From the NCBI RefSeq assembly GCF_044324875.1, contig NZ_CP172185.1: a stretch of DNA of 64,000 bases; one strand, written 5' to 3'. Position numbers and translations under genes: made by a program. The DNA comes from Escherichia coli. Its GTDB lineage: Bacteria > Pseudomonadota > Gammaproteobacteria > Enterobacterales > Enterobacteriaceae. Shown piece after piece: positions 38,220 through 40,166 of this stretch (positions are counted from its first letter, which is position 1; the number at the start of each line of letters is the position of its first letter). Under the pieces are notes generated by a model, which saw only the letters and a program-made list of their open reading frames with translations, was not told where the DNA came from and did no database searches.

Positions 38220-38376
38220 GGTACCCTGCTGTACGGACTAATCGGAACCTGTCGGTTGAACGGTATCGATCCGGAAGCGTATCTGCGCCATATCCTGAAC
38301 GTTCTACCGGAATGGCCTTCCTGCATGGTTGATGAACTCCTGCCATGGAATATGGTGCTCCCATTGGGGTAAGCGT
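38220..38376 (+). pseudogene. IS66-family transposase (TnpC) C-terminal remnant with terminal GTAAGCG motif
   Basis: Translation GTLLYGLIGTCRLNGIDPEAYLRHILNVLPEWPSCMVDELLPWNMVLPLG closely parallels the C-terminus of the TnpC at 40167-41618; ends in GTAAGCG. Confidence 0.7.
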
Positions 38377-38495
38377 CAATACGGCGTTCGCTTAACTTAA
38401 CACTTACTTTCAAAGCCTGATATCTGTCCTACGCTTTTCCTCAATACCACATCGCCAGCAGGAAACAACCTAATGCCTGTGTTGGGGTCTGAATT

Positions 38496-38558
38496 ACTAA
38501 TGATAATCATTTGCATTGTGTATAGCTTATGCTATAAAACATAGCCGTTGCTATGTTT
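38496..38558 (+). promoter_or_regulatory. sitA promoter region with Fur box and MntR box
   Basis: Fur-box-like ACTAATGATAATCATTTGC at 38496-38514; perfect MntR-type palindrome AAACATAGC-CGTT-GCTATGTTT at 38537-38558, preceded by the related TATAGC-TTAT-GCTATA. Confidence 0.75.
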
Positions 38559-38590
38559 GTTCTAATTTTACTCACTATAGGTACTGAATT

Positions 38591-39505
38591 ATGCACTCAA
38601 TAAAAAAAGTAACCATGCTCCTGGGGTGCCTCGCCCTCACCTGCTCGATAGCATTTCAGGCGAGTGCAACTGAAAAATTCAAGGTCATTACAACATTTAC
38701 CATCATCGCAGATATGGCCAAAAACGTGGCTGGAGATGCTGCAGAAGTCTCATCCATAACCAGGCCCGGTGCAGAAATTCATGAGTATCAGCCTACCCCT
38801 GGCGATATTAAACGTGCGCAGGGGGCACAACTGATTCTCGCCAACGGTATGAATCTGGAATTGTGGTTCCAGCGCTTTTACCAGCATCTCAGTGGTGTTC
38901 CAGAAGTGATTGTCTCTTCGGGTGTGACGCCAGTAGGGATCACCGAAGGCCCCTACGAGGGAAAACCTAACCCTCATGCCTGGATGTCGCCAGATAATGC
39001 TTTGATTTACGTCGATAATATTCGTGATGCGTTGATAAAATACGATCCGGCAAATGCAAAAACATACCAACGTAATGCCGATACTTATAAAGCCAAGATT
39101 ACCCAAACCCTTGCCCCCCTGCGTAAGCAGATTGCTGAACTCCCTGAGAATAAAAGATGGATGGTCACCAGTGAAGGGGCTTTTTCTTATCTCGCACGCG
39201 ATTTGGGGCTAAAAGAGCTTTATCTGTGGCCGATAAATGCCGATCAACAAGGAACACCCCAGCAGGTACGTAAAGTGGTTGATATAGTGAAGAAAAATAA
39301 TATCCCAGCGGTATTTAGTGAGAGTACGGTTTCCGATAAACCAGCGCGTCAGGTTGCGCGTGAAACCGGCGCACACTACGGCGGTGTGCTCTATGTCGAT
39401 TCCCTGAGCACAGAAAACGGCCCGGTACCTACGTATATCGACCTTCTGAAGGTTACTACCAGTACGCTGGTGCAGGGAATTAAAGCCGGGAAAAGGGAGA
39501 AGTAA
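38591..39505 (+). CDS. sitA: Periplasmic Mn/Fe-binding protein of the Sit ABC importer
   Basis: 304-aa ORF with signal peptide and cluster A-I (TroA/ZnuA-like) solute-binding fold; metal-responsive operators upstream. Confidence 0.85.
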   Translation: MHSIKKVTMLLGCLALTCSIAFQASATEKFKVITTFTIIADMAKNVAGDAAEVSSITRPGAEIHEYQPTPGDIKRAQGAQLILANGMNLELWFQRFYQHLSGVPEVIVSSGVTPVGITEGPYEGKPNPHAWMSPDNALIYVDNIRDALIKYDPANAKTYQRNADTYKAKITQTLAPLRKQIAELPENKRWMVTSEGAFSYLARDLGLKELYLWPINADQQGTPQQVRKVVDIVKKNNIPAVFSESTVSDKPARQVARETGAHYGGVLYVDSLSTENGPVPTYIDLLKVTTSTLVQGIKAGKREK

Positions 39506-39640
39506 TGATGCAATCTGCGGGTATTGTCGTTAATGGCGTTACTGTCACCTAGCGAAACGGGCAGAAAGCACTGCGCGATGCATCCTTCACAGTACCAGGC
39601 GGATCTATTGCCGCTCTGCTTGGGGTAAACGGTTCCGGTG
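39505..39640 (+). pseudogene. sitB: sitB (ABC ATPase) 5' fragment with in-frame TAG at codon 15, then truncated at an IS66-family junction
   Basis: MMQSAGIVVNGVTVT-stop-RNGQKALRDASFTVPGGSIAALLGVNGSG, then loss of ABC-ATPase sequence. Confidence 0.75.
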
Positions 39641-40129
39641 AAATCGTCTTGACACGTTTCTGGGCTCGTCATCAGCGGTTGTTGCGAATGATCGCCGCCC
39701 TGCGATGGTTGATTTATTTTATTGCGCCCCGGCGTCTGCCTTGCCAGGTACCGGAGGCGGGCTCTGAAGGACTGAGTAGGGTGAGCGCGTCAGGCCGCGA
39801 AGTACTGACACGGGAGTTTGTGGCAGGCAGTGAAGTCCTGACCAGGGTAAGGGAGGCGCTGACGTGCAGGTCCTGACTGTCAGCCAGGCGCATGGTGACT
39901 GACTTTCTCAATAACCCGCTGTCAGGCGCTCAACGCCCGACAGCAGGCCATGGCCCGGTGTGCAAAGACCTGACGGCAGGTGTTGTGTCACCCGGAGAAG
40001 GTAAATCCCTCAAGAGGCAGCAGCTCAGCCAGTCGGTCCTCAGGCCACTCCGGCAGGCGCGTCAGTACGTCCGTCAGCCAGGCATGTGGCTCCAGACCAT
40101 TACGCTTTGCTGTTTCCAGAAGACTCATT
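39641..40129 (-). mobile_element. IS66-family remnant (second copy, 3' end only)
   Basis: Minus-strand translation of about 39985-40129 gives MSLLETAKRNGLEPHAWLTDVLTRLPEWPEDRLAELLPL, a TnpC C-terminal motif distinct from the neighbouring copy. Confidence 0.6.
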
Positions 40130-40166
40130 GTAAGCGTACAGCGAGGGCCGTATTGACGGGGATGTG

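Follow-up and report, generated by a model that had tools for sequence, protein, structure and literature searches.

The stretch of DNA analyzed here (the window, 64,000 nucleotides of an Escherichia coli chromosome) joins a core region, glnH-rhtA-opgE-ybiR, to a genomic island that carries a tyrosine integrase (Table 1). Inside the island there is an intact sitA gene followed by a stump of sitB, with remnants of insertion sequences (IS) of the IS66 family on both sides, and immediately to the right of the second remnant lies what looks like a complete IS66 copy. RefSeq/PGAP labels both remnants as 'transposase domain-containing protein, incomplete' (pseudogenes) and also lists sitA, sitB as a pseudogene, and tnpB, tnpA and a frameshifted tnpC of the IS66 type. 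The outline of the locus, i.e., ordinary IS decay in a mosaic island, is already known from this annotation. The exact anatomy, the chimeric make-up of the 'complete' copy and an order of events drawn from 17 related genomes are new, and a literature search on ISEc8, the IS66 family and sitABCD gave nothing specific to this locus. The interval 37600–43100 was found at 99.9–100% identity in five independent complete RefSeq E. coli genomes. These five come from different countries, with chickens as the main source. Seventeen genomes carry this sit allele: eight have sitABCD intact, four have sitB joined to the second remnant and five are of the window type.

Table 1. Features of the locus and their positions in the window.
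Feature	Position	Strand	Basis or remark
Core region glnH-rhtA-opgE-ybiR	1–26,547		E. coli chromosome, left 26.5 kb of the window
Genomic island, start	from ~26.7 kb		tyrosine integrase; remnants and sitA inside
Remnant 1, whole	37997–38407	+	IS682-like; 5' truncation and 1.84-kb (~1.8-kb) internal deletion
Remnant 1, part a, tnpA internal/3' fragment	37997–38212	+	85.6% nucleotide identity to IS682 tnpA over 216 nt
Remnant 1, part b, ORF of 52 aa	38214–38372	+	PF13817, E 2.8e-15
Remnant 1, degenerate right end	38369–38407	+	aligned with IS682 (L005) and an independent relative (L020)
sit upstream/promoter region	38408–38590	+	conserved in plasmid and chromosomal sit loci (L010, L011)
sitA, periplasmic Mn/Fe-binding protein, 304 aa, intact, orphan	38591–39505	+	PF01297 ZnuA, E 4.6e-86
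sitB stump, 44 codons and 2 nt	39505–39638	+	aligned with intact sitB (L010, L011, L013); PGAP pseudogene
sitB/remnant 2 overlap GTTCCGG, 7 nt	39632–39638		three-way comparison of window, intact sitB (L013) and remnant 2 (L014)
Remnant 2, 3' ~498 bp of an ISEc49-like/O157-type IS66 element	39632–40129	-	77–78% nucleotide identity (L003/L004)
Remnant 2, ORF, last 46 tnpC codons	39988–40128	-	PF13817, E 1e-18
Chimeric IS, 2,549 bp	40130–42678	-	GTAAGCG at both ends
ISEc8-derived part: IRR tip and 3' third of tnpC	40130–40896	-	GTAAGCG at 40130; 100% identity to ISEc8
ISEc8/X crossover interval	40897–40902		last ISEc8-specific site 40896, first X-specific site 40903
X-derived part: 5' two-thirds of tnpC, tnpB, tnpA, IRL tip	40903–42678	-	
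Chimera tnpB	41838–42185	-	
Chimera tnpA	42182–42592	-	
Chimera IRL tip CGCTTAC	ends 42678		

Remnant 1, upstream of sitA, is similar to IS682 and has two parts. The tnpA fragment contains an in-frame stop and gave no Pfam match, its identity coming from the nucleotide similarity to IS682; ~270 bp on the left of the element, where the left inverted repeat (IRL) and the beginning of tnpA would be, are gone. The second part is an ORF in which an internal deletion of ~1.84 kb has fused the start codon of tnpB to the last 51 codons of tnpC. The junction alignment places the fusion of both halves at 38213–38216, the stretch 38216–38384 has 82.9% nucleotide identity to the 3' end of IS682 tnpC, and the TAA stop is at 38370–38372. 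The Pfam matches to PF13817 (IS66 C-terminal element) of this ORF and that of remnant 2 exceed the curated cut-off.

An earlier, sequence-only reading had described here a TnpC C-terminal remnant ending in GTAAGCG. The C-terminus is real, but the element continues beyond GTAAGCG. This motif occurs a single time (38369–38375), overlapping the TAA stop and forming the inner arm of a sub-terminal palindrome, and the tip lies 32 nt beyond it. Besides the inner palindrome arm (GTAAGCGTCAA), the right end contains a duplication of 5 nt (TTAAC) and a tip ...ACTTAC at 38407, so that the remnant truly extends from 37997 to 38407. Read inward from 38407 the tip is GTAAGTGTTAA..., degenerate and starting with GTAAGTG, against GTAAGCGTCAA... 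in IS682. A tip at 38396 (CGCTTAAC) had been considered and was rejected, since the alignment with IS682 and its independent relative exposed the TTAAC duplication. Similarity to other sit loci begins at ~38404–38408, right at the tip, and because the tip directly adjoins the sit upstream DNA, position 38407 is a bona fide, albeit decayed, insertion junction at a distance of 183 bp upstream of sitA.

The same remnant is found at the same position upstream of an intact sitABCD in eight sister genomes (97.8–98.6% identity), none of which has an IS66 piece downstream of sitD. Remnant 1 is therefore older than the loss of sitB-D and unrelated to it. Its structure is old, being common to all 17 genomes with this sit allele.

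The sitA gene is 93–95% identical to plasmid and chromosomal alleles and 97–98% identical to the allele of the sister islands with an intact operon, from which it differs by 28 nucleotides (20 synonymous and 5 non-synonymous codons). Its neighbor has fared worse. The sitB stump has a nonsense mutation at codon 16 (TGG to TAG) and is cut at codon 45, within the region coding for the Walker A motif, and sitC and sitD are absent. sitA is the leftover of a broken sitABCD operon and not the cargo of a composite transposon, and it was spared solely by the position of the breakpoint, in sitB.

What follows the stump is remnant 2, the 3' portion of an element similar to ISEc49 and to an IS66 element of O157-type strains. 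What is left of it is the sub-terminal part of the right inverted repeat (IRR), a 3' region of ~350 nt and the last 46 codons of tnpC, so that the observation of a second, different TnpC C-terminal remnant between the sitB stump and the IS66 copy was confirmed (Table 1). The inverted repeats of the O157-type element and of ISEc49 have their tip 9 nt outside a conserved CGGnGAA motif, and comparison at the junction indicates that remnant 2 lacks the outer 5 nt of this tip. The sitB sequence reaches ...GGTTCCGG and the IS sequence starts at GTTCCGGTGAAATCG, both overlapping over 7 nt. Because of this microhomology, and because the outer 5 nt of the tip were removed, we regard the junction, judging from the alignments, as a product of short-homology illegitimate recombination rather than of a transposase.

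Related genomes contain the partners of this join separately. AR_0085, in which sitABCD is intact, has remnant 2 in another island (99.2% identical), with its tip GTCATG-TTCCGG adjoining part of another gene for an ABC ATPase. The ISEc49-like remnant belongs to a different island in other genomes. The join without any ISEc8 sequence is present in four genomes, e.g., ECCNB12-2 and Br_112_kylling, where remnant 2 extends further, with 333 nt of tnpC. In AR_0085 the partners lie 179 kb apart in direct orientation, and loss of these 179 kb by a single deletion in a chromosome of that type was considered as the origin of the join and rejected. The genes between them include rpsF, priB, rpsR, rplI, ppa, valS, lptFG and holC, and since these essential core genes separate the partners, the join needed an exchange between islands or incoming DNA.

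When the three TnpC C-termini of the locus were aligned pairwise (the stop codon of the third copy is at 40167) they turned out to be distinct, with 43–63% amino acid and 52–59% nucleotide identity. At this divergence they derive from independent elements and are not duplicates. That one IS66 sequence had been duplicated or misjoined during assembly would have in its favor nothing beyond the general risk of misassembly at repeats; the divergence of the three ends and the five independent complete assemblies that reproduce the arrangement at 99.9–100% identity rule it out.

The sequence-only reading had also suggested that sitA may have persisted within a composite-transposon-like segment. According to this, remnant 1, sitA, the sitB stump and remnant 2 would form a unit in which the inward IS66 ends kept sitA and mobilized it. 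Around sitA there are indeed two IS66-family 3' ends that point inward, and the pairing of remnant 1 with sit is found in islands at three chromosomal contexts; in AR_0085, for example, the island is inserted at another chromosomal site, inside the ula operon, and its integrase is only 84% identical. (That the window shares the ycjD-side left flank of PK-F-10122 was ruled out by BLAST.) However, the flanks are different elements, one IS682-like and the other ISEc49-like, with 47% amino acid and 52% nucleotide identity between their tails. Each has kept a single end, degenerate at the tip in remnant 1 and without the tip in remnant 2, and neither has an outer end, remnant 1 beginning inside tnpA (37997) and remnant 2 being cut by ISEc8 at 40129; no duplication flanks the unit as a whole. 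The right junction is a microhomology join devoid of an IS tip. Remnant 1 predates the loss of sitB-D, being present in eight genomes where sitABCD is intact and no IS66 piece follows it, and remnant 2 exists independently, beside another gene, in a genome with intact sitABCD. The half formed by remnant 1 and sitA was detected in 17 genomes and both halves in nine, each time within the same larger integrase-bearing island and not in unrelated contexts, and the plasmid search found the block on no plasmid. All this makes a composite unit very improbable.

The 'complete IS66 copy' of the sequence-only reading is a chimera in which one part comes from ISEc8 and the other from a resident element without a name, called X here. 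It is the only one of the three with the tnpA-tnpB-tnpC organization, although its tnpC is frameshifted, remnant 1 keeping a tnpA fragment and the tnpC tail and remnant 2 only the tnpC tail. The chimera matches the domains PF03050 (E 1e-104), PF13817, zf-IS66 and LZ_Tnp_IS66, both remnants match PF13817, and in the chimera GTAAGCG is found at 40130 and, as the complement, ending at 42678. About 730 bp at the 3' end are 100% identical to ISEc8 copies (thousands of records). ISEc8 is an abundant element, and the strains considered here carry many copies of it. The remaining part is 99–100% identical to X (L006, L008) and is followed by the same right flank, in genomes where the ISEc8 part is absent. 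Many genomes have X resident at this place, with an IS3 remnant, a MarR gene and the iol cluster as its neighbors. Among the E. coli complete genomes no copy was detected that is intact or has a name, and X is essentially absent from 72,556 plasmids.

The analysis of informative sites indicated that the switch between parents, in the block that encodes GRLWxYVRDD, is sharp and preserves both register and reading frame. It falls in the best conserved 40-bp patch of the two tnpC genes (80% identity vs. ~59–62% overall), the longest exact ISEc8/X match being 6 bp at the crossover and 15 bp anywhere. The frameshift is due to an 8-bp tandem duplication of CTTATCAA (41628–41643) in the X part, and removing one of its copies restores a tnpC ORF of 517 aa. 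In X copies without the ISEc8 part, too, PGAP annotates tnpC as frameshifted. As to the target site, the search for an 8-bp duplication gave none, the flanks being GACTCATT and GTAAAATC, while controls had perfect ones: ISEc8 in L009 (CCAACAAA on both sides) and IS682 in L005 (TCTTTCTC on both sides). The whole chimera was found in 5 of 5,426 complete E. coli genomes, always at this locus, uninterrupted in four and with ISEc62 inserted into the element in TUM9803.

A naturally mosaic but genuine member of the IS66 family, transposed as such into remnant 2, could present the same gene organization, and the GTAAGCG ends match at 21 of 36 positions, near the 22 of 36 of ISEc8 itself. Such an element would have to be reconciled with the lack of a target duplication, with a single copy per genome at one locus in 5 of 5,426 genomes, with a tnpC frameshift caused by the same 8-bp duplication as in the resident X and with a right flank that is the same as the one beside X in many genomes without the ISEc8 part, X being moreover not found on plasmids. 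We consider it extremely improbable; the sequence comparisons point instead to an immobile, frameshifted chimera.

The probable state before the chimera can be seen in Br_112_kylling. There sitA and sitB' are followed by remnant 2 in its long form and then by RelE', Rpn, IS2 and other genes as far as YaiO; next come IS256, a truncated X, IS3', MarR and iol, all oriented as in the window. It has 9.7 kb that are absent from the window, from which the remainder of remnant 2 is also missing. This arrangement is likely the precursor of the one in the window.

Taking these comparisons together, we consider it highly probable that the locus consists of decayed pieces of four IS66-family elements around the remains of an island-borne sitABCD. 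An IS682-like element would have inserted first, 183 bp upstream of sitA, and then decayed by truncation, the 1.84-kb deletion and mutation of its tip, as the structure and age of remnant 1 indicate at the sequence level. Later, short-homology recombination at GTTCCGG would have cut sitB at codon 45 and joined it to an ISEc49-like remnant already truncated; the junction itself can be read directly, and its direction and mechanism are our inference. ISEc8 would then have transposed into the tnpC stub of remnant 2 at 40129/40130, as suggested by the exact ISEc8 tip at 40130 and the 100% identity to ISEc8. Finally, the tnpC of this ISEc8 would have recombined in register with that of X, situated ~10 kb away in the same orientation, at the 6-bp identity. 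Such an event would remove ~9.7 kb from the island together with 1.7 kb at the 5' end of ISEc8, the remainder of remnant 2 and the target duplication, giving as a product the 2,549-bp chimeric pseudo-IS without target-site duplication. The mechanism of recombination is uncertain, since exact matches of 15 and 6 bp are below the usual RecA-dependent requirement. The locus also shows no fewer than two events of illegitimate recombination or deletion. The suspicion of repeated IS66 insertion and deletion was correct and even understated, with pieces of an IS682-like element, an ISEc49-like element, ISEc8 and X.

The last two steps would probably have taken place in that order, and an intermediate can be predicted: a whole ISEc8 within remnant 2, flanked by GACTCATT and recognizable by the junction CGCTTAC-GACTCATT-ATCTGTGCC. 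This junction (the ISEc8 left end, GACTCATT and the rest of remnant 2) was found in 0 metagenome contigs, and the intermediate had no full-length match among the 5,426 complete E. coli genomes. The chimera could instead have been formed first at the X locus, by recombination with an ISEc8 located elsewhere, e.g., on a plasmid, or by gene conversion, and an IS-mediated adjacent deletion would have extended later leftward into remnant 2. This sequence of events also accounts for the exact ISEc8 tip at 40130, the lost duplication and the missing ~9.7 kb, and these strains are rich in ISEc8 copies. Because the intermediate was not found, we grant it some probability, albeit a lesser one. It encounters several difficulties: X is cut by IS256 in the precursor-like genome, so that rebuilding its 3' part needs an extra exchange that removes IS256; the tnpC of the chimera is frameshifted, and a transposase would have to act in trans; and adjacent deletions are not known as an established activity of IS66-family elements. 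Overall we find it unlikely and prefer insertion of ISEc8 into remnant 2 followed by recombination with X.

The region is most likely an insertion-sequence graveyard in an integrase-borne E. coli island, without a function of its own. There is a slim chance, distinctly on the unlikely side, that the orphan sitA with its native promoter region is kept as a working binding protein. SitA would then supply Mn/Fe to a SitBCD permease whose genes are located in another part of the same strain, e.g., a ColV-type plasmid or an additional sit locus of the chromosome, and the truncation would have produced a spare, independently regulated binding protein rather than a dead gene. The sitA ORF and its upstream region are intact in nine of nine truncated genomes, whereas the sitB stub has a nonsense codon. 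Selection on sitA cannot be inferred from this, because the nine genomes are 99.6–100% identical and too little time has elapsed.

The biological importance of the locus is small and the consequences are practical. sitA serves as a virulence or fitness marker in gene-presence typing, and typing based on it would score these strains as sit-positive here, though the locus encodes no transporter. The chimera mimics a complete IS66 in its length, three genes and both GTAAGCG ends, and would be miscounted in IS censuses based on annotation. It also offers a clean natural case of what appears to be in-register recombination between transposase genes of ~60% identity at a 6-bp identity, one possible route to mosaic IS66-family elements and to island deletions.

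Compared with known systems, the locus shares with the sitABCD Mn/Fe ABC importer of Shigella, avian pathogenic E. coli (APEC) and ColV plasmids a full-length sitA and a conserved upstream region but, unlike them, encodes no transporter. With the IS66 family (IS682, ISEc8 and ISEc49, ISfinder names as given by PGAP) it has in common the TnpC domains, the gene order and the GTAAGCG termini, although against the intact members it has only two truncated remnants and one chimera without duplication. Like in composite transposons of the Tn5 or Tn10 type, a gene is located between inverted insertion-sequence DNA; unlike in them, the flanks are non-identical and truncated, without outer ends, duplication or any sign of movement. 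The closest parallel to the proposed insertion of ISEc8 into remnant 2 is provided by E. coli O157:H7, where IS682 is nested in the tnpC of another IS66-family element (L003, L005). The O157:H7 nest keeps both halves of the element and the duplication TCTTTCTC, whereas the window has lost the duplication as well as the distal half, and its inserted element, unlike that of O157:H7, has probably recombined with a third one.

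We have found the same island in three chromosomal contexts (window ~26548-27930; records L013, L016 and L018). It adjoins ybiR in the window and in the genomes ECCNB12-2 and Br_112_kylling, adjoins ycjD in the sister genome PK-F-10122, and in AR_0085, where the island integrase is just 84% identical, lies within the ula operon, with ulaD on one side and ulaE on the other. The IS21-like element of the island stands in place of 230 bp found in PK-F-10122 and in the other sister genomes, where this stretch holds the 5' end of a dolP paralogue carried by the island, together with its upstream region; both insertion and deletion are peculiar to the window's genome. 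The nonsense change in the sitB stump is shared by the window and PK-F-10122-type genomes and is missing from ECCNB12-2. The sitB stub is decaying, and sitA meanwhile is intact.

Features of the island and of its IS66-family elements
Feature	Position	Location or note
IS21-like element (istA/istB)	window 33930-36568	
Sub-terminal palindrome (TAAGCGTCAA...TTGACGCTTAC)	window 38369-38407; L005 (IS682 record) 5716-5745	right ends of IS682 type
TGG-to-TAG nonsense change	window 39550-39552	codon 16 of sitB stump
8-bp tandem duplication (CTTATCAA CTTATCAA)	window 41628-41643	tnpC of element X
IS3-family integrase-core remnant with internal stop	window 42679-42970	right of chimera
Frameshifted MarR-family gene	window 43394-43900	right of chimera

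In element X, the resident IS66-family part of the chimeric IS, the tandem duplication of CTTATCAA is the tnpC frameshift, and removing one copy restores an ORF of 517 aa. The X copies in L006 and L008, which do not carry the ISEc8 part, are likewise flagged as frameshifted in tnpC by PGAP. Since the length of the duplication, 8 bp, is that of an IS66/IS256-type target duplication, it could be the footprint left by an excised IS. The IS3-family remnant and the MarR-family gene are both kept beside X in many genomes, the latter being intact in strain LSN03-016011/A. In TUM9803 the IS21-like ISEc62 is found inside the chimeric IS, between tnpC and tnpB (L007 7130-9390, corresponding to window ~41900), one more layer of nesting.

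The palindrome of IS682-type right ends starts inside the tnpC stop codon or just past it and may form a hairpin. From the tnpC stop to the tip there are 30-37 nt in ISEc8 and IS682, whereas in the ISEc49-like lineage this interval is unusually long, at ~350 nt (window 39639-39987; also in L003 and L004, relatives of the remnant joined to sitB), and in some relatives carries the annotation of a hypothetical ORF.
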